This document shows, piece by piece, positions 31,608 to 63,053 of a DNA stretch of 64,000 bases. This stretch comes from a virus (Duplodnaviria; Caudoviricetes): IMG/VR virus record IMGVR_UViG_3300011429_000087, positions 32,001 through 96,000 of that record; one strand, written 5' to 3'. The translations under genes and the position numbers were made by a program. Under the pieces are notes generated by a model. It was not told the DNA's origin, made no database searches, and saw nothing but the letters and a program-made list of their open reading frames with translations. The first letter of the stretch is position 1; each line of letters begins with the position of its first letter.

Positions 31608-32169
31608 ATATGGTATAGATATTAAACATCGCCGAGTCTTTCTATCTGGCGAAATTACAAACGGTAAGACTGATGCAGTTATCCGTGGCTTAATTTTATT
31701 AGCCGATAGAGGGGCGGAAGATATTGATTTTATAGTGCAATCTCCTGGCGGAGAAATGTATGATACCTTTGCTATTTACGATACTATTAAAGGTATTCCC
31801 AATAATGTCAGAACAATTGCAATTGGACACTGCCAATCTTCCGCCCCTTTATTAGTTGCGGCAGGTACGCCTGGGAAGCGTATTAGTCTTCCTAACTGTC
31901 ATTTCATGGTTCATGATATTTGGACCGAAGGTGCTCCAGATGCTAGCGTTGAAGCGGCTACGAAAGAACTAAGACATACGAAGAGACTACGAAGTAGATA
32001 TTTAGAATTAATGACCGCTAATAGCAAGATGTCATTACAAGATTGGCGTAAGATTTGTCGGCGGGCCGGTGATCTATTTTTTGGCCCTGTTGAAGCGTTA
32101 AAATATGGCATTATTGACAGAATAGAAAAAGACAATATCTGGAGCGGGAATAATGGCGAGAAAAAGTAA
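31594..32169 (+). CDS. clpP: ClpP-family protease
   Basis: RRVFLSGEI, QSPGG, IGHCQSSA (Ser), FMVH (His), DLFFGPVEALKYGIID. ATG 31594 preferred. Confidence 0.88.
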   Translation: MNLLEYGIDIKHRRVFLSGEITNGKTDAVIRGLILLADRGAEDIDFIVQSPGGEMYDTFAIYDTIKGIPNNVRTIAIGHCQSSAPLLVAAGTPGKRISLPNCHFMVHDIWTEGAPDASVEAATKELRHTKRLRSRYLELMTANSKMSLQDWRKICRRAGDLFFGPVEALKYGIIDRIEKDNIWSGNNGEKK

Positions 32170-44174: not shown

Positions 44175-45298
44175 AACGCAAAGCGAGAGTAGTTCACCTA
44201 ATGAAAGACCTGGGCTTAGGTGGCACACAAAAGACCGCACAACTATTCTGCAAAGCATTGGTGAAGAAATATGCCGATTTCTATGATGTAACCGTTCTTT
44301 ATAATGCTGCCCACGATATGACTCGCTATAGGGATTTCCTAGAAATCCTTGGTTCAGAGGAACGTATGGTTCCTTATCGGTTTGATAACCAAGGGGTCGA
44401 AATCTTGCAGTCTTTGCGGCCAGACATTACACATGTATATAGGGCCGGTATACCAGAATGGCCCATCCCGGGCAAGGATATCAAACAAACCATATTTGTT
44501 GAAACTAATGTTTTTGGTTTTCTAGATCCAAATCCCAACGTGAATAAAACTTTATTCATGAGTAATTGGCTCACGGAATGTTCTAAGAGACAGCACGGCG
44601 AAGGAATATTTAATACGCTTGATAAGCAGGGCAGATTTGATTTCATCAATAATCCAGTTGATAGTCCTGCCACAGATGAAAAGCTGATTTTAAATCTCGA
44701 TAAAGATTTTGTAGTTTTGGGTAGATGCGGCAGACCAGATGACGGCATTTATGATGACGTCAATGTAAAGGCGGCTCTAATTCTTCAGGCCAAAGGCCAT
44801 AAAGTTTTCTTTCTTTCTTTGGCTCCGCCGCCTAGAATGATGGACGATTTAGATAAGTATGGTATTCCGCACATCAATATAGCTCCAACGGTCGATCCAA
44901 TCGTTCTCAGTGCTTTCTATAATTCTATTGATATCCTCGCACATGCCCGGGCGGACGGGGAAACGTTCGGAAGTAATATTGCAGAAGCAATGATGCACGG
45001 TAAGCCAGTTGTTACGCATATTGCAATTCCGAGCCATCCTAGAATGGGAGTTTTTCAGGCTCAGACGGAATTGGTTAAGGATGGAGTTACCGGATTTGTG
45101 TGCGAGCATAATGCCGCAGCGTATGCGGAGCAACTTGAAAAGTTAGTGATTGTTAAGCCAGCAAGAGCAAAATTTGGACAGGCCGGAAAAGAATGGGCCG
45201 TGCGGAATTGCAGCACAGAAGTTTGTGGAGCGAAATTGCACGAAGTATATCAGAATTTATTATATCGTTGGGGCCATACTATTAGACCGAGGAGTTAA
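44162..45298 (+). CDS. GT4 glycosyltransferase (paralog of 47189..48274)
   Basis: LGLGGTQK, GETFGSNIAEAMMHGKPVV, ELVKDGVTGF. Confidence 0.9.
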   Translation: MESIKRKARVVHLMKDLGLGGTQKTAQLFCKALVKKYADFYDVTVLYNAAHDMTRYRDFLEILGSEERMVPYRFDNQGVEILQSLRPDITHVYRAGIPEWPIPGKDIKQTIFVETNVFGFLDPNPNVNKTLFMSNWLTECSKRQHGEGIFNTLDKQGRFDFINNPVDSPATDEKLILNLDKDFVVLGRCGRPDDGIYDDVNVKAALILQAKGHKVFFLSLAPPPRMMDDLDKYGIPHINIAPTVDPIVLSAFYNSIDILAHARADGETFGSNIAEAMMHGKPVVTHIAIPSHPRMGVFQAQTELVKDGVTGFVCEHNAAAYAEQLEKLVIVKPARAKFGQAGKEWAVRNCSTEVCGAKLHEVYQNLLYRWGHTIRPRS

Positions 45299-45305
45299 CA
45301 AAGTC

Positions 45306-46982
45306 GTGATCAAAGATAATAAAACTTTAGATGGTAGAAATATTATCCATATTACTAATGAATCTCACGCTAAAGTTATAAGGATATGTGATTTATGTCA
45401 AAAAGAAGATATAGTTAATTGGAGAGATATTATTAGGTCTAGAAATAAGAAAAAAAACATGAATTTGTCAGAACTAGATACGTGTAAAAAATGTTCTTAT
45501 AAAATATTTCCTTCTTACATAAAGGGAAAACATTTGTCTTTAGAAACTAGGAAAAAATTATCAGAATTTGGTAAAACAAGATTTAGTAATCCGAAAAATA
45601 AAGAATATCTTTGTGACAGGAATAAAGAAAATAATCCAAACTACAAAAGTGGATTTAGATTAAGACGTGGTGGCCATATATCCAGAAGAGAATTAGGCAA
45701 AGAAATACAAGTTCATAGAGAGATTTATGAACAATATAATAATATAAAATTATTAGATACTGACATCATACATCATATTAATTGTAATCCAATAGACAAT
45801 AGAATAAATAATCTTGCATTATTCAAAACGACCGGCCAGCATATGCATGCACACAGACAATTAGAAAGTATAGCGGCAAAACTTGTAGAGAGAAAAATAA
45901 TTCTTTTCAATCATGATACTGGAGAATATTATTTAGATCCATGCGTTGATTTAAATACATCTCCAATTAGTCTTGGTTTTGAAGATATAGCCATTACACA
46001 ACAAAAAAATATATGTCAGTCTAGACTTGATGTTAATATATCATCTAAAATAACAAAAAAAATTATTCGCCCCGTCCCATTTCTTGCATCAAATATGTCT
46101 ACGGTTATTAATGAGCAATTTTATATTAAATTGTACGATCTTGGAGCACTTGGAATTATGCATCGTGTTTGGGATATAGACGATAATTATATTTTAACTA
46201 TGAAACGAATTTCTAGTCACTGCAACATTGTGGCGGCGTCGGTTGGTGTAGGAGATCGTCAAATCGAACTAGCCAAAAGATTAATAAAAGATGGAAATGT
46301 TAATGTATTATGTATAGATGTTGCTCATGGTTTTTCTGATGTTATAAAATATACGGCAAAAGCGATTAAATCTTTTGATAAAGACGTGCAATTGATTATT
46401 GGTAATACAACTAATCCAGATATTATATATGATATATATCAATATGCCGATTCTATAAAAGTAGGAATTGCCCAAGGACTTGCCTGCGAGACTAAAAATA
46501 CTGCCGGTTGTACAGAAAAACAATTCTCTACTATCTTAAAATTTAAGCAAATCTCGAAAGACTTTGGCATTCCTATTATTGGAGATGGCGGAGTACGTGA
46601 GGCATCAGATTTTGTTAAAGGAATAGCAGCCGGGGCGTCTGCTATAATGGCCGGTTCTACTTTTGCATCTTGTCCCGAGTCAGCCGCAGAAATAGTAGAA
46701 ATAGACGGTGTAAAAAAGAAACTTTATGCGGGAATGGCTAGTCGTTACGTTCAAGAAAAATGGCGTGGTGGACTAAAGCCGGGGACTTGTTCTGAAGGAA
46801 AGATTGTGTATCTTGATATAAAACGTCCCGTCGCGGAATTAATTGAACGTTATGCAGGAGCATTAAGAAGTGGAATTACGTATAGTGGGGCGACTTCTAT
46901 TAAAGAAATGCAAGACAGGGCGGAATTTATTCGTATTCCAAATTTGGAGGGAACCCCACATGTGGCTAATCGTTTGGTTTAA
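45306..46982 (+). CDS. NUMOD3-HNH endonuclease fused in frame to an IMP dehydrogenase/GMP reductase (GuaB/GuaC family)
   Basis: N-terminal GKHLSLETRKKLSE and VHREIY...IHHINCNPIDNRINNL. From ~45969: LGFEDI...PFLASNMSTV, IDVAHG, KVGIAQGLAC, PIIGDGGVR, YAGMAS, LRSGITYSGA. GAGGAG RBS before GTG 45306. Confidence 0.85.
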   Translation: MIKDNKTLDGRNIIHITNESHAKVIRICDLCQKEDIVNWRDIIRSRNKKKNMNLSELDTCKKCSYKIFPSYIKGKHLSLETRKKLSEFGKTRFSNPKNKEYLCDRNKENNPNYKSGFRLRRGGHISRRELGKEIQVHREIYEQYNNIKLLDTDIIHHINCNPIDNRINNLALFKTTGQHMHAHRQLESIAAKLVERKIILFNHDTGEYYLDPCVDLNTSPISLGFEDIAITQQKNICQSRLDVNISSKITKKIIRPVPFLASNMSTVINEQFYIKLYDLGALGIMHRVWDIDDNYILTMKRISSHCNIVAASVGVGDRQIELAKRLIKDGNVNVLCIDVAHGFSDVIKYTAKAIKSFDKDVQLIIGNTTNPDIIYDIYQYADSIKVGIAQGLACETKNTAGCTEKQFSTILKFKQISKDFGIPIIGDGGVREASDFVKGIAAGASAIMAGSTFASCPESAAEIVEIDGVKKKLYAGMASRYVQEKWRGGLKPGTCSEGKIVYLDIKRPVAELIERYAGALRSGITYSGATSIKEMQDRAEFIRIPNLEGTPHVANRLV

Positions 46983-52232: not shown

Positions 52233-52554
52233 AGATTATCAGGAAAAAACTGCCACCACGGCTATTTATCCTGGACGGGGTACAATCAATGGGGTGCTTT
52301 ATACAGCCCTAGGACTTGGCGAAACTGGCGAAGTACAGGGTAAGGTAAAAAAGATTCTACGAGATAATAATGGTATTATTTCAGCGGAAACAGTTTCAGC
52401 CATTAAAGGTGAATTAGGCGATTGCCTCTGGTATATTTCCCAACTTTCAAGCGAACTAGGTCTTGATTTAAATACAGTTGCTCAAGAAAATTTACAGAAA
52501 TTAGCAGATAGAGCGGCGAGAGGAACTCTTAAGGGTTCTGGAGACAATAGATGA
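52222..52554 (+). CDS. MazG-like nucleotide pyrophosphohydrolase
   Basis: YQ..TAIYP..LGLGETGEV..KVKK..RD..ELGDCLWY..NLQKL..R..RG...GSGDNR. Confidence 0.92.
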   Translation: MDFKDYQEKTATTAIYPGRGTINGVLYTALGLGETGEVQGKVKKILRDNNGIISAETVSAIKGELGDCLWYISQLSSELGLDLNTVAQENLQKLADRAARGTLKGSGDNR

Positions 52555-52949
52555 GAAATAAGTTACCACCTAGGCTAAAATTACAACTTATATGGTTTAA
52601 GATTAAAAAACATATTTGGTGTCGGTGGTTTAAAAAATGGCATCGACGCTGTTATCCAGAAGTTTGGGTTGGTGGAGATATTACTCGATACCATTGTTTT
52701 GATTGTATGCCATGTGGATTTTTCATGGATCACTTATCAGAGATTATTAAATATAATGACCACGGACCAGAATGTCGAGACTGTCTACTTCCTTATATAA
52801 ATTTTGATTTAGATACGACGCTACCTGATGATCAGTGGCGAGAAGTAAGTAAGGGTGTTGACTTATTATGTGCTAATTGTATAGTGAAGCGAGCTTCTAA
52901 ATTACCTGGAGTAGTTGCGACACGCATGGTAATAGAGATTGTAAAATGA
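52551..52949 (+). CDS. Cys-rich hypothetical protein
   Basis: CFDC, CRDC and CANC motifs. ATGA overlaps on both sides. Confidence 0.6.
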   Translation: MRNKLPPRLKLQLIWFKIKKHIWCRWFKKWHRRCYPEVWVGGDITRYHCFDCMPCGFFMDHLSEIIKYNDHGPECRDCLLPYINFDLDTTLPDDQWREVSKGVDLLCANCIVKRASKLPGVVATRMVIEIVK

Positions 52950-53917
52950 TACGCCTAATGTATGCAGGTCTTCTTTATGATTATGGAGAGCCCGATAAAG
53001 GCTACTCTTACGAGCATAATAATATCGAAGCTGGTCTACAAGATTGCGAGGATAGAAAACTAATATCGCTACAACGGTTTCATATTGACGCATTTCGTAA
53101 ATCTACTAGTCGAGAAGCATCTTATAAATGGTTAGAGAATGAGATTAGAAATAAATCATTCGACATCTTATTTTATGTAGCCTTTAATGAAAGCTATGAT
53201 ATTCCTACCGAACTATTAAACTTGTGCCGCGACTTCGGTATCAAGACTGTTCAGTGGGATTGCGATTCTTCGTGGCGTTTCCAAAACTGGATTTTACCAC
53301 GCAAGAATTTATTTGACTACTTTATTACTACTCATTCACAAGCTGTTCCTTGGTATCAAGCCGCAGGTATGAAAGTGATCCATTCTCAGTGGGGTGGATC
53401 GCCATTATACTCGGAAGACTTTAGTGTATTTAAAAAGCATGATATTTCTTTCGTCGGGCAATTGCATGGTGTGCGTGGACAAATTATGCGTAAATTAATG
53501 GACGCCGGTTTAAATATAAAGATTTGGGGCAATTATTGGAATAATTATACGAATTGGCAAGGATATTTAACCGATTTTGGAGCGATGCTTAAAGTTTTTC
53601 AGGAATCTAAAATCTGTTTAAATCTATCTAATCCTTGGCACGTTGGGACGATGTCTCAGATAAAAGGTAGACACTTCGAAATTCCAAAAGCTGGAGGATT
53701 TCAATTATCTACTCCGGCTGATAATTTGGAGAACTATTTCGTTCCTGGAAAAGAAATTGTCCTTGCTAATGATATCAATGAACTTGTTGACAGATGTAAG
53801 TATTATCTTGACCATGAAGAAGAAAGACAATCTATAGCGATAGCTGGTTGGGAACGTACCCAAAAGGAACATCTTTGGCATCATAGATTTGAAAAGATAT
53901 TAAAGGAAATTGCATGA
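52946..53917 (+). CDS. CgeB-like (Glyco_trans_1_2) glycosyltransferase
   Basis: WDCDSSWR, HDISFVGQ..R, SKICLNL...QIKGRHFEIP..GGFQL, HLWHHRF. Confidence 0.9.
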   Translation: MIRLMYAGLLYDYGEPDKGYSYEHNNIEAGLQDCEDRKLISLQRFHIDAFRKSTSREASYKWLENEIRNKSFDILFYVAFNESYDIPTELLNLCRDFGIKTVQWDCDSSWRFQNWILPRKNLFDYFITTHSQAVPWYQAAGMKVIHSQWGGSPLYSEDFSVFKKHDISFVGQLHGVRGQIMRKLMDAGLNIKIWGNYWNNYTNWQGYLTDFGAMLKVFQESKICLNLSNPWHVGTMSQIKGRHFEIPKAGGFQLSTPADNLENYFVPGKEIVLANDINELVDRCKYYLDHEEERQSIAIAGWERTQKEHLWHHRFEKILKEIA

Positions 53918-54687
53918 GTTGGACTAAAGAAGAAATTGTAATCTTAAAAGATAGTTATGGAAAAATGCCATCTACTAAAATGCCATTAAATAAAAAATCG
54001 GCTACGATTAGGGCAATGGCAAATCGTTTGGGATTAGAAATTAATACACAAAAAAGCTATGGGAAATATTTCTATGATACTGACTTCTTCTCAGAACCTA
54101 ATATTATCAACTCTTATTATGCCGGTTTTATAGCTGCCGACGGTTGTATTACACAATATAGTAAAAAACGTTATGGATTAGAAATTAAGATTCAAAAACG
54201 TGACGAAAGAATATTGCAAAATTTTAAAAAAGATGTTCATTTTACTGGGCCAATATCATTTGTCAAACGAGCATTACCAAATTATCAAGACTGTGTTCGT
54301 ATTAGAATATCATTGGACGATAGAACCTTGAATGATCTAAAACATCACTTTAATATTACGCCTCAAAAATCAAATATCTTAAAACCTCCATTAATTAATA
54401 ATATCAACGCTCTATCTTTTATTATTGGATATATTGATGGTGATGGCTGGATTTCAAAAAATCCAGACGTAGTTGGGGCAATTGGCACATATGATTTATT
54501 AGGTTGGATAAAGGAAAAATTTGATATATTAGTACCAAATCAACATTATAAGATATCTAAAGTTAATTATAAATATAAAAATCAAGGACATTATATTGTT
54601 GAAGGGGAACGTGCCAGAAATTTGGTTCGCAATTTAAATAAAATTAACGTACCTATCAAATTAGAAAGAAAATGGAATAAAATATGA
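53914..54687 (+). CDS. Free-standing two-motif LAGLIDADG homing endonuclease
   Basis: YYAGFIAADGCI and FIIGYIDGDGWI. AT-rich. No intein or intron signals seen. Confidence 0.9.
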   Translation: MSWTKEEIVILKDSYGKMPSTKMPLNKKSATIRAMANRLGLEINTQKSYGKYFYDTDFFSEPNIINSYYAGFIAADGCITQYSKKRYGLEIKIQKRDERILQNFKKDVHFTGPISFVKRALPNYQDCVRIRISLDDRTLNDLKHHFNITPQKSNILKPPLINNINALSFIIGYIDGDGWISKNPDVVGAIGTYDLLGWIKEKFDILVPNQHYKISKVNYKYKNQGHYIVEGERARNLVRNLNKINVPIKLERKWNKI

Positions 54688-54691
54688 AAAT

Positions 54692-55138
54692 ATTAAAATT
54701 GATCTGTTCGGTAATTATTGGGATGGTTATCCTAACTGGAACGGCTACCTCACAGACTTTAGTGCGATGCTCAGGGTATTCCAACAATCTAAAATCTGCC
54801 TCAATTTATCCAATCCCTGGCACGTTGGGACTATGCCTCAAATCAAGGGAAGACATTTTGAAATCCCACAGTGCGGAGCTTTTCAGATTAGTACACCCGC
54901 AGATGACATCAACAGTTATTTTATCCCCGGGAAAGAAATTGTCATTGGCAACGATATTGAATCGCTTGCCGCCGCCTGTAAGAGTTACATTAATGCAGAC
55001 GGCGAGCGGGAGATTATTGCAAAAGCGGGTTATGACAGGATGTTGCGGGACCACCAATGGTTTAATCGTTTTGAGAAAATACTAAAATGCATTACCTTGT
55101 CAGTGAAACCCTTAAGGCTATCGAACAGGCCCCACTAG
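54692..55138 (+). pseudogene. Orphan duplicate C-terminal ~130 aa of the CgeB-like GT 52946..53917
   Basis: Frame of the 54767 ORF extended upstream reads IKIDLFGNYWDGYPNWNGYLTDFSAMLRVFQQSKICLNLSNPWHVGTMPQIKGRHFEIP...RFEKILK, colinear with ~53510-53905. Confidence 0.85.
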
Positions 55139-55740
55139 GACTTAAATTTGTTCTTCCAGATGAAGTAGCAGGATGGTGTCCTATAGAACTAGGATCTGTT
55201 CTTGGTACACTTCTATTATCTGGTGATAGAAAATACTTAGAAGTTGGTACTTTTTGTGGACGAAGTTTAATTTATGCACTTCGTACAAATAAAAATACTA
55301 AGGCGTATGTTATAGATCCACTATTAGATTCAATGAAGGTCGCCAATTCTAATGTCTGGCTTCATTGGAGTAAAAATGTCGTTGACTATGAGATTAAAGA
55401 TCAAATAACTTTATATCGCGAGCGTATCGAACATTTTCAGGGAGAAATTAAAGATATTGATATAGCATTTGTAGATGGTAATCATGACTCCGGCCACACA
55501 TACGAAGCACTTAAAAAAGTACAAAATTATCTTGCCGATAATGCCATAATAATTGTAGATGATTATGAAATCTTTGGTGGTCCCGGACAAACTCCATTTC
55601 CAGGGTATGAGGTTGATCTTGAAAAGCCCGTAAAAACAGATGTTCATAAATATCTAGCAGATACGCCGGAAGTTACGGTGATTGCCTATACGCCGTGGCT
55701 CAATTCTCAAATCTATTTACATTTTCAGAGGGCTAAGTGA
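55087..55740 (+). CDS. Class I SAM methyltransferase (Methyltransf_24-like)
   Basis: YLEVGTFCGRS, IDIAFVDGNH, IIIVDD. Confidence 0.88.
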   Translation: MHYLVSETLKAIEQAPLGLKFVLPDEVAGWCPIELGSVLGTLLLSGDRKYLEVGTFCGRSLIYALRTNKNTKAYVIDPLLDSMKVANSNVWLHWSKNVVDYEIKDQITLYRERIEHFQGEIKDIDIAFVDGNHDSGHTYEALKKVQNYLADNAIIIVDDYEIFGGPGQTPFPGYEVDLEKPVKTDVHKYLADTPEVTVIAYTPWLNSQIYLHFQRAK

Positions 55741-56363
55741 GTAATTTAATATTTATGGACGTTGGGGCGAATACAGGACAATCTTTAGAAGCTGCCCTTC
55801 TATATCCTTTTGATACTATATATTGCTTTGAACCAGTAAAGAAGTTTTATTCTGAATTAACTAAAGTGGCACGGAATAATTTTAAAGGATCTGTAATATT
55901 TAATAACTTTGGCTTATATAATGACCATAAACGATTACCTATCTATGGACCAGTAGATGGTCCAGATGGATATGCTGCCAGTATTTATTCCGACCATCAA
56001 GATGTAAAGGATGGCATAGAGATGTGTACGTTTCTCGATGTTAATGACTGGATGAGAACAAATCTATCTTATGGTGATGCAGTAATTATGAAGTTAAACT
56101 GTGAAGGTGCAGAAGTTGATATTGTTAATAGACTATTAGATACAAACATATTTAGATATATGGCAAATGTAATGATAGATTTTGATGCAGTAAAAATTCC
56201 ATCTAAAAAAGCTGAAGTAGCACCACTAATGACACGCTTAAAACCATTTAAGAATTATGTACTAGCAGAACAGGTTATGCACGGTGCAACTCATAAAGAT
56301 AGAATCTGTAATTGGCTCAATAAATTAGGATTAAAACAAAATGAACAAGTGGCGAAATCGTAA
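55737..56363 (+). CDS. FkbM-family methyltransferase
   Basis: FMDVGANTGQ, IYCFEP, MKLNCEGAE. Confidence 0.88.
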   Translation: MSNLIFMDVGANTGQSLEAALLYPFDTIYCFEPVKKFYSELTKVARNNFKGSVIFNNFGLYNDHKRLPIYGPVDGPDGYAASIYSDHQDVKDGIEMCTFLDVNDWMRTNLSYGDAVIMKLNCEGAEVDIVNRLLDTNIFRYMANVMIDFDAVKIPSKKAEVAPLMTRLKPFKNYVLAEQVMHGATHKDRICNWLNKLGLKQNEQVAKS

Positions 56364-61633: not shown

Positions 61634-62569
61634 ATGTCTACAATCCTTGTAACTGGTGCCGGTGGATTCGTTGGTAAGAATCTAATTAGATATTGGATGG
61701 CTAATAATCCAGATTATGATAGATTGCTTACACCATCTAGCAAAGATGTCAATTTAGTATCATATGGAAGTACTTATCAATTTATACGTAGGATTGGTAA
61801 ACTAGATGGTATTATCCACTTAGCGGCACTATGTGGCGGCATAGGTATTAATAAGGAACGGCCCGGCGATTTTATATATCAGAACATGATGATGGGTGCT
61901 AATATATTAGAATCCGCTCGACAGAACTCCATTCCCAAGGTGCTTTTATTGGGCACAGTTTGTCAATACCCAAAATTTGCCACCCCTCCATTTAAAGAGG
62001 ACGATATTTGGAATGGTTATCCAGAGGAAACAAACGCACCATATGGTATTGCCAAAAAAGCAATTATGGAAATGGGGCAAGCGTATCGTCGTCAATTTAA
62101 AATTAATATTATCACGCTTATCCCCACAAATCTTATTGGCGAATTTGACCATTTTGAAGAGGATAGATCACATGTTGTTCCCGCCCTCATTAAGAAGTTT
62201 GGTGATGCAATATATAATAAGCTTCCTTACGTTACCGTTTGGGGCGATGGAACAGCTAGTCGTGAATTCCTCGATGCTAGCGATTGTGCTCGTTCAATCT
62301 ATCTAGCATATAAAAATTATAATGGAAATTTACCAGTTAATATTGGAAACAATAAAGAGGTCACAATTAAAGAACTTGTCTATATGATTGCCAAGTTAAT
62401 GAATTATCGTGGCGACATTATTTGGGATAAAACAAAACCTAACGGGCAGCCGCGTCGTTGTCTAGACGTTTCTAGGGCAAAAGCACTATTTGGTTTTGAA
62501 GCCAAAATCACTCTAGAAGAATCGCTAAATAGAGCTATAGAATATGCGAAGGAGAATGGATATGCATAA
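61634..62569 (+). CDS. fcl: GDP-L-fucose synthase
   Basis: VTGAGGFVG, HLAALCGGI, LGTVCQYPK, NAPYGIAKK, PTNL, SHVVPALI, WGDGTASREFL, KPNGQPRR. Confidence 0.93.
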   Translation: MSTILVTGAGGFVGKNLIRYWMANNPDYDRLLTPSSKDVNLVSYGSTYQFIRRIGKLDGIIHLAALCGGIGINKERPGDFIYQNMMMGANILESARQNSIPKVLLLGTVCQYPKFATPPFKEDDIWNGYPEETNAPYGIAKKAIMEMGQAYRRQFKINIITLIPTNLIGEFDHFEEDRSHVVPALIKKFGDAIYNKLPYVTVWGDGTASREFLDASDCARSIYLAYKNYNGNLPVNIGNNKEVTIKELVYMIAKLMNYRGDIIWDKTKPNGQPRRCLDVSRAKALFGFEAKITLEESLNRAIEYAKENGYA

Positions 62570-63053
62570 ACGTCGTCTTTTGCCAAGTAAAATACCTATA
62601 ATAGATAAATTTAATTTATTGATAAATAAGAATTCCGGTATATTCGGCGAGAGTAACGATTATCTCACAGAATGTTGGCAGTGGTGTGGCGAAATACTAA
62701 ATAATGGTTATGGCCGAATGACATATATGCATAGCCGATTCATGGCTCATAGATGGTCATACGAATATTTTAATGGTCCAATCCAAGACGGTATGCAGAT
62801 AGATCATCTCTGTAGAGTTAGAAGATGCGTGAATCCAAAACACTTAGAACAGGTTACATGTTCTGAAAACTTGGCACGCGGCAATACCGTTAATGCAATT
62901 AATAGGAAGAAAACACATTGTATTCGTAATCACGAATTTACTGAAATTAATACTGGTATAGATTTTCGTGGCGATAGATATTGTAGAGAATGTGCTAGAC
63001 AAAAGGCTCTAAAATTTAGAGCCAAAAAGAAACTGGAGAATCCTTCATGTTAA
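62556..63053 (+). CDS. Free-standing HNH endonuclease
   Basis: CWQWCG...GYG...AHRWSY...IDHLCRVRRCVNPKHLEQVT..EN, with C-terminal THC..NH..YCREC. AGGAG RBS. Start is 62556 or 62562. Confidence 0.9.
   Translation: MDMHKRRLLPSKIPIIDKFNLLINKNSGIFGESNDYLTECWQWCGEILNNGYGRMTYMHSRFMAHRWSYEYFNGPIQDGMQIDHLCRVRRCVNPKHLEQVTCSENLARGNTVNAINRKKTHCIRNHEFTEINTGIDFRGDRYCRECARQKALKFRAKKKLENPSC

Follow-up and report, generated by a model that had tools for sequence, protein, structure and literature searches.

A LAGLIDADG endonuclease gene and a foreign glycosyltransferase 3' half as a probable composite homing cassette in a large phage

The window analysed here is a stretch of 64,000 nucleotides (nt), positions 32,001 to 96,000 of the 164.5-kb IMG/VR virus record IMGVR_UViG_3300011429_000087, which comes from an uncultured phage. 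It contains a complete glycosyltransferase (GT) gene, a LAGLIDADG homing endonuclease gene that begins at the GT stop codon, and a second copy of the GT 3' half, which we call the orphan. We are confident that the endonuclease gene and the 3' part of the GT gene form a composite homing cassette, in which a free-standing endonuclease is associated with a foreign, presumably cleavage-resistant, 3' copy of its target gene; that confidence applies to the architecture and the origin of the element. The evidence comes mainly from comparison with two other genomes: L005 (IMGVR_UViG_3300005617_000117), a syntenic relative that is free of the endonuclease and whose GT protein is P0003, and L009 (Ga0137452_1015649), a JGI metagenome contig of 2320 bp that begins inside the cassette, at the equivalent of window position 53817.

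Resident and foreign parts of the glycosyltransferase gene

The order of GT gene, LAGLIDADG gene and second GT 3' copy had been described in a sequence-only reading of the window, and the coordinates are as given there. The features of the locus, with the evidence for each, are as follows.

52946..53917, + strand: hybrid GT gene; complete open reading frame (ORF) of 323 amino acids (aa) with its own stop; PF13524, GT-B/GT4-like fold
52946..53347, + strand: resident-type GT 5' part, codons 1-134; identity to L005, informative sites, grouping with P0003/P0008
53357..53917, + strand: foreign-type GT 3' part, codons ~138-323; identity to L005, informative sites, grouping with P0002
53914..54687, + strand: free-standing single-chain LAGLIDADG homing endonuclease gene, 257 aa; PF14528, PHROG 4645, both motifs
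54688..54691, + strand: right junction, 4 nt from the endonuclease stop to the first native orphan codon (Ile189); three-way alignment with L005 and L009
54692..55093, + strand: orphan, the displaced resident GT 3' half, codons 189-322; identity to L005, collinearity, grouping with P0003/P0008
54692..54759, + strand: rightward co-conversion tract, the initial 68 nt of the orphan; 100% identity between window and L009
55087..55740, + strand: next resident gene, a methyltransferase (PF13578) that serves as downstream synteny anchor; Pfam, identity to L005 and L009

The GT ORF matches PF13524 (Glyco_trans_1_2, CgeB type) with an E-value of 3.6e-31 and 108.5 bits against a cut-off of 25. Its AlphaFold2 (AF2) model (pLDDT 95.1) and the Foldseek matches of that model, BshA, SdgB, PimA, MshA and PglA (GT-B/GT4), agree on a fold of two Rossmann domains; no solved structure related to the GT by sequence was found. 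The orphan also matches PF13524 (E 7e-25), and it aligns with the in-gene copy over 132-135 codons free of gaps, at 64% aa and 63.5% nt identity. Its first start codon is an ATG at 54767 (Met214), and it lies in the frame of the ORF that begins there. The endonuclease ATG overlaps the GT stop codon in the sequence ATGA, and no terminator-like site was found between the genes. An all-against-all comparison of the whole 164.5-kb record found no other truncated nearby paralogue pair.

L005 has the same neighbouring genes, a single intact 323-aa GT and no endonuclease. All of the related IMG/VR loci (21/21) likewise carry one intact GT here and lack the endonuclease. In a blastn comparison, homology to L005 begins at 54692, the first base of the orphan, and window 54692-55716, which covers the orphan and the methyltransferase gene, is collinear with L005 4562-5586. 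The hybrid GT aligns to L005 only as far as 53764, and more weakly. Identities to L005 differ along the locus in the same manner.

GT codons 1-135: 73% nt identity, third-position identity 0.50 (within the range of the flanks)
GT codons 136-323: 61% nt identity, third-position identity 0.33
Orphan against the L005 C-half: 85% nt identity, third-position identity 0.80
Flanking genes: 67-85% nt identity, third-position identity 0.42-0.66

At the protein level the resident-type 5' part is 81% identical to L005, and the methyltransferase gene has 67% nt identity to L005. Informative sites place the change of affinity within the gene: to the left of residue 134 there are 33 P0003-like and 5 P0002-like sites, to the right 9 and 48 (Fisher p 4e-12), P0002 being a GT protein from another lineage, encoded on a different contig. 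The left mosaic breakpoint therefore lies between codons 134 and 154 (53347-53405), so that the foreign tract begins some 35-55 codons upstream of the boundary of the duplication at codon 189. This upstream extension looks like a leftward co-conversion tract. The proposal of the earlier reading, that the element had inserted mid-gene and supplied its own 3' half, thus holds as regards the foreign 3' part, while the boundary has to be moved from codon 189 to codons 135-154.

Phylogenetic trees divide the gene in the same way. The in-gene C-half (residues 189-323) is 83% identical in amino acid sequence to P0002 and pairs with it (SH-aLRT 94). The orphan joins P0003 and P0008 (SH-aLRT 87), to which it is ~80-83% identical, and GT residues 1-134 join the same two proteins (SH-aLRT 92), inside a clade (96) that lacks P0002. 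It had been predicted that the orphan would group with the N-terminal half, and this is what we observe, with the in-gene C-terminus grouping elsewhere. A tree of residues 1-188 had paired the window with P0002; we attribute this to the foreign residues 135-188 that it included, as the GT joined P0003/P0008 when the alignment was recut at residue 134. Judged by these comparisons, the in-gene 3' part is foreign and the orphan is resident.

Could the two copies have arisen in place, by tandem duplication of the GT 3' half followed by divergence and an unrelated endonuclease insertion, with no foreign DNA? The shared reading frame and gap-free alignment of the copies would suit such a history. 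An approximately unbiased (AU) test, however, rejects a clade of the in-gene C-half and the orphans (delta lnL 76.5, p 0.0003), and therefore excludes a simple in-place duplication. Each copy has closer relatives elsewhere (P0002 at 83% for the in-gene copy, P0008/P0003 at ~80-83% for the orphan), the foreign tract reaches upstream of the duplicated part, and the copies differ in GC content at third codon positions (GC3; 0.27 versus 0.47). We consider a local duplication highly improbable.

An identical cassette in a second genome

L009 and the window are identical over 943 nt, from 53817 to 54759. The identical segment takes in the final 97 nt of the GT's in-gene copy, the whole endonuclease gene (774/774 nt), the 4 nt of the junction and 68 nt at the start of the orphan. 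Beyond 54759, identity is ~85% in the remainder of the orphan and 76.5% in the methyltransferase gene, and the L009 orphan is an allele of its own that retains the native stop (…ILECLS*). Since 943 identical nt stand against flanks that differ by 15-24%, vertical inheritance does not account for the similarity, and the cassette must have been transferred recently. A 68-nt identical tract followed abruptly by 15% divergence seems hard to get by chance. Together with the absence of the endonuclease from the 21 related loci, the L009 identity shows the horizontal spread expected of LAGLIDADG endonucleases, and on these alignments the natural evidence of recent spread appears unusually clear.

The comparison also bears on the polarity of the exchange. 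The earlier reading had judged by eye that the in-gene copy is AT-rich like the endonuclease and the orphan richer in GC, and GC3 agrees (in-gene copy 0.27, endonuclease 0.20, orphan 0.47), with 0.35 in the GT 5' part and 0.24-0.35 in neighbouring genes. As the orphan exceeds its neighbours, it could look foreign, and one may ask whether the native 3' half is the one in the gene, the endonuclease having come in with a downstream GT fragment. Yet the C-half of the intact GT in L005 has an equally high GC3 (0.57), so that a high value is typical of the resident lineage. The orphan is, moreover, collinear with the resident downstream gene, and between the window and L009 the orphans diverge together with their flanks, while the in-gene copy, like the endonuclease, shows no difference. 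There is, in our estimate, very little chance that the polarity was the reverse.

The data are metagenomic and the cassette repeats part of the GT, circumstances in which assembly might join two strains or phages in a chimeric contig. Against this, 4 other contigs encode the identical hybrid GT (P0241) and 5 contigs the identical endonuclease protein, in data from JGI, Logan and ENA. The junctions from endonuclease to orphan to methyltransferase are spanned by an independent JGI contig. No reading frame is interrupted, and the start of the endonuclease overlaps the stop of the GT. An artefact of this kind would be a most unlikely source of the arrangement.

The endonuclease itself looks active, to judge from the acidic motif residues that it keeps, from a confident model and from its top structural matches, which are single-chain LAGLIDADG enzymes. 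It matches PF14528 (LAGLIDADG_3; 31.3 bits against a cut-off of 22.5) and PHROG 4645, annotated 'endonuclease'. The two LAGLIDADG motifs, GFIAADG (residues 71-77) and GYIDGDG (residues 172-178), contain acidic residues and both align to I-Tsp061I; D76 and D177 are invariant among 50 homologues. The AF2 model (pLDDT 93.7) has an N-terminal region of ~60 aa and the pseudo-symmetric two-domain fold, alpha-beta-beta-alpha-beta-beta-alpha, and Foldseek matches it with probability 1.00 and E-values down to 3.5e-8 to I-AniI, bI3 maturase, PI-PfuI, I-Tsp061I, I-SceI and I-OnuI.

A cassette of the same origin might nevertheless be a fossil, its endonuclease now inactive or immobile and the arrangement passively inherited. 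Activity is judged here from sequence and model only, the closest non-identical homologue of the endonuclease is only 51% identical, and just two genomic contexts have been seen. The ORF, however, is unbroken, keeps the two catalytic motifs and is modelled with a confident fold, and 943 nt that lack a single difference between flanks diverged by 15-24% require a very recent transfer. We regard the fossil as improbable.

Further examples are scarce. In GenBank phages a DNA search in distant mode gave no match and a protein search one weak, irrelevant match; a search of IMG/VR with the endonuclease found no relative, and a scan of JGI metagenome contigs with it returned one locus, L009. When a longer genome of the L009 type was sought by means of the L009 methyltransferase, only the L005 record was returned, and a search for other called orphan ORFs gave 7 short matches, almost all on short contigs. 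No further cassette of this type was found in the rest of the genome or in the 25 loci that we fetched.

We also considered whether an intron, an intein or trans-splicing takes out the intervening segment, in the RNA or in the protein, leaving the orphan as the expressed C-terminus. In favour of this, the orphan shares the reading frame of the GT, and the 1182 nt that separate it from in-gene codon 189 are a multiple of three. But no Rfam intron family matches the locus at E <= 1 and no intein motifs were seen in it, so that neither the ribozyme structure nor the in-frame splicing blocks of intron- or intein-borne endonucleases are in evidence. The endonuclease lies in another frame, has its own start and overlaps the GT stop, and is therefore not an intein. 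The in-gene copy keeps every family-invariant residue and ends in its own stop codon; given also that no intron is detectable, splicing is not needed, as the sequence-only reading had proposed. That the orphan supplies the C-terminus by splicing is extremely improbable.

A proposed route of homing

We propose that homing would take place during mixed infection, when the endonuclease would cut an endonuclease-free GT allele at, or just to the left of, codon 188/189. The left break end would be resected to a conserved block at approximately codons 91-135 and would pair there with the 5' part of the donor GT, while the right end would pair with the orphan of the donor from the first base of the orphan, 68 nt being co-converted. 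Repair synthesis would then copy the intervening foreign 3' part and the endonuclease gene. The recipient would acquire a complete hybrid GT with the endonuclease translationally coupled to it, and its own 3' half would be pushed downstream to become a new orphan, available as a homology arm for the next round.

Several features of the sequence fit this scheme. The block at codons 91-135 has 78.5% nt identity to L005 and provides the first good homology to the left of codon 188/189; the left crossover is placed there. The orphan appears to be the right homology arm, made anew at each homing event, because L009 joins the identical cassette to its own version of the orphan. The earlier reading had described the old 3' end as stranded. 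The resident 3' half has indeed been displaced, but rather than being merely stranded it appears to act as an arm of homology, and this would make the element self-propagating.

The recognition site must be missing from genomes that bear the endonuclease, and should therefore lie in the native codons ~135-191 or across the junction at codon 188/189; the orphan alone cannot hold it, having kept the consensus of the family. Directly downstream of the junction comes the DNA block that the family conserves most strongly (GAT CTN TTY GGN AAY TAY TGG GAY GGN TAY; D-L-F-G-N-Y-W-D-G-Y). Of the sequences compared, the in-gene copy and P0002 alone depart from this block, reading K-I-W-G-N-Y-W-N/E-N-Y, and the deviation of the in-gene copy fits a cleavage-resistant allele. 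The target site is thus narrowly bracketed, and a new LAGLIDADG specificity can be tested directly. The two-genome comparison may be read as a natural map of one homing event, with a left crossover in codons 91-135, a cassette of at least 943 nt and 68 nt of rightward co-conversion.

Five points weigh against this account of the locus. The cutting itself, its position, the resistance of the hybrid allele to it and the repair route are inferred only, the site being bracketed by logic. L009, at 2.3 kb, shows the right junction only, and a strain-level assembly chimera could still lie behind it. P0002 comes from a 1.2-kb contig and was compared as a protein only, and the other contigs bearing the endonuclease are likewise known from their proteins alone. 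In the AU test, a pairing of residues 1-134 with P0002 is not rejected (p 0.29). Lastly, synonymous sites in the native C-half are oddly conserved.

The last point concerns the native-type C-half wherever it occurs (window 54692-55093, L005 4562-4963, L009 876-1277). Here third-position identity is 0.78-0.80, against 0.42-0.66 in the flanks, and GC3 is raised to 0.46-0.57 in all three genomes. The +1 frame of the native C-half is open in these three sequences but in none of 18 homologues at greater distance; in the orphans of the window and L009 it is opened, for 133 aa, by an ATG that overlaps the endonuclease stop (54684). An overprinted +1-frame gene was dropped as the explanation, since the frame is not open in those 18 homologues. 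Candidate causes of the conservation are recent exchange, a constraint at the DNA level or an overprinted ORF specific to the clade.

The orphans are otherwise in good condition, with neither frameshift nor internal stop, and with all family-invariant residues kept. Omega is ~0.3 in all pairwise comparisons, and singleton changes are in slight excess (28 and 29 nt, compared with 18). We examined whether selection on the orphans has been relaxed; the singleton excess is small and, with omega at ~0.3, not decisive, and the intact frames and the omega value are therefore read as a sign of recent displacement. Relative to L005 and L009, the native stop of the window orphan has been removed by a GTA-to-GTC change, which is silent in the overlapping methyltransferase gene, and the frame continues to a stop at 55136-55138. 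According to the GT model, the beta-alpha unit with which the C-terminal Rossmann domain opens (strand 165-170, helix 177-186) is missing from the orphan, which also has no start before Met214 and is unlikely to function as a protein.

In a GT-B fold the C-terminal Rossmann domain binds the donor. In the AF2 model the foreign 3' part spans this domain entirely, so the suggestion that the nucleotide-sugar-binding domain was exchanged is correct to the extent that the whole domain has been swapped. Its extension to glycan diversification is unsupported so far, because the donor of the 3' part is an orthologue from the same GT family and the hybrid retains every family-invariant residue. One might imagine the cassette as a domain-swapping engine, each homing event replacing the donor-binding domain and yielding a chimeric GT-B enzyme with altered use of sugar donors, and the displaced native domain serving as a reserve that recombination between the copies could restore. 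This, if true, would tie the spread of the endonuclease directly to the diversification of glycans in phage populations, but we think it unlikely.

Related elements and neighbouring genes

Free-standing homing endonucleases of phages have usually been described as lying between genes or as splitting genes. The cassette would represent a third route in a virus, namely the invasion of the middle of a conserved coding sequence with neither intron nor intein, by means of a replacement 3' half that the element carries. Such cassettes yield chimeric genes and orphan fragments that can mislead gene calling, pangenome clustering and phage phylogenies based on single genes. Our literature searches found no phage precedent for a cassette that replaces the 3' end of a gene, which does not prove that none exists.

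The closest parallel is provided by the mORF elements of fungal mitochondria, found first in Allomyces macrogynus atp6 and later in Rhizopus oryzae atp9, Mortierella verticillata cox2 and Glomus sp. atp6/atp9/cox2/nad3 (PMC3630166). In these, a LAGLIDADG or GIY-YIG ORF is accompanied by a foreign in-phase C-terminus, and the native C-terminus is still present downstream, where its sequence falls among those of close relatives (PMC3630166). The phage locus shares with them a resident 5' part, a foreign in-phase C-terminus, an endonuclease ORF and a displaced native C-terminus, as well as the phylogenetic signature in which the native copy groups with close relatives and the inserted copy elsewhere (PMC3630166). 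Even the divergence of the copies is alike, those of Glomus atp6 being 63.5% identical in nt sequence (PMC3630166), as are the phage GT copies. The defining combination of an endonuclease ORF in a protein gene that lacks intron and intein, a complete in-phase hybrid and a displaced native C-terminus is thus found here.

The phage element also departs from the mORFs. Its host is a large dsDNA phage and not an organelle, and its target an accessory GT-B glycosyltransferase and not a gene of the respiratory chain. Whereas the endonuclease is fused in phase in Glomus atp6 and nad3, that of the phage is a separate, ATGA-coupled ORF. Here, unlike in the mORFs, a second genome carries the identical cassette and co-conversion tracts are mapped on both sides. 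The mORFs known are from organelle genomes, while the present record is viral, with a DnaB-like helicase and several HNH genes; we note that the organelle-only distribution concerns where mORFs were described and not how the element works. By analogy, the mechanism would be the same as in fungal mORFs, and what is new would be the host system, a large dsDNA phage and an accessory glycosyltransferase.

The free-standing endonucleases of phage T4 offer a second comparison. SegF, SegG and MobE and their kin lie between genes or split them (mobE/nrdA, mobA/gene 60, seg/gene 43), and the review that describes them speaks neither of a duplication nor of a displaced gene end, and includes no LAGLIDADG enzyme (PMC2988022). 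Like intronless homing in T4, the phage system involves a free-standing endonuclease that is expected to spread by double-strand-break repair, with flanking co-conversion and a resistant adjacent allele (PMC2988022). It differs in that the GT stays whole, because the replacement 3' part travels with the endonuclease.

At polymorphic toxin loci, including rhs, the old C-terminal segment likewise gives way to a new one and survives as an orphan further downstream (PMC2935791). No homing endonuclease is reported to take part at those loci, and the displaced tips are different toxin domains (PMC2935791), whereas the two GT copies are orthologous versions of the same domain.

An endonuclease that moves with protective sequence is also part of the T4 literature in another form. 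Bonocora et al. 2011 are said to have described T4 mobA and the gene 60 bypass element as a mobile cassette. There too, reportedly, the endonuclease travels with sequence that makes the host gene immune to cleavage; the protective element is said to be a 50-nt translational bypass in a gene that is split, whereas in the phage GT it would be a full alternative 3' half, with the old half left in place.

Related phages have further endonuclease genes within the same cluster of glycosyl- and methyltransferase genes. In L017 and L018 (149-757) and L025 (2626-3240), LAGLIDADG relatives with 35-38% identity lie at most a few kb upstream of the GT. L012 (5493-5864 and 6483-7037) has two paralogous ORFs with HNH-like Cys motifs (by eye) that flank a methyltransferase, as do L022 and L023. 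These three loci were rejected as candidate cassettes, the paired ORFs being of this HNH-like kind. None of the six loci contains an orphan gene fragment.

The gene immediately 5' of the GT is a 132-aa Cys-rich ORF in the window (52551-52949), with no Pfam or PHROG match, and an apparently unrelated 120-aa ORF at the same position in L005 (3642-4004). As the upstream gene differs, the 5' flank of the GT is a second mosaic junction. Downstream, a 208-aa ORF that has no Pfam match (55737-56363) lies between two methyltransferase genes; it is absent there in L005 and L009 and, by this comparison, is an insertion specific to the window genome.

Elsewhere in the window, a 610-aa ORF (45150-46982) combines an HNH region (approximately residues 109-263; PF13392, PHROG HNH) with a complete IMPDH/GMP-reductase domain (275-598), and may represent another endonuclease insertion, at the start of a gene. 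There is also a family of at least 5 paralogous ORFs spread over the genome, one at window 62541-63050 and others at genome positions 117394-117942, 127367-127978, 139783-140427 and 151939-152484; the member in the window, the only one scanned, matches HNH_3 (PF13392). The phage appears from this family to be rich in homing-type endonucleases.

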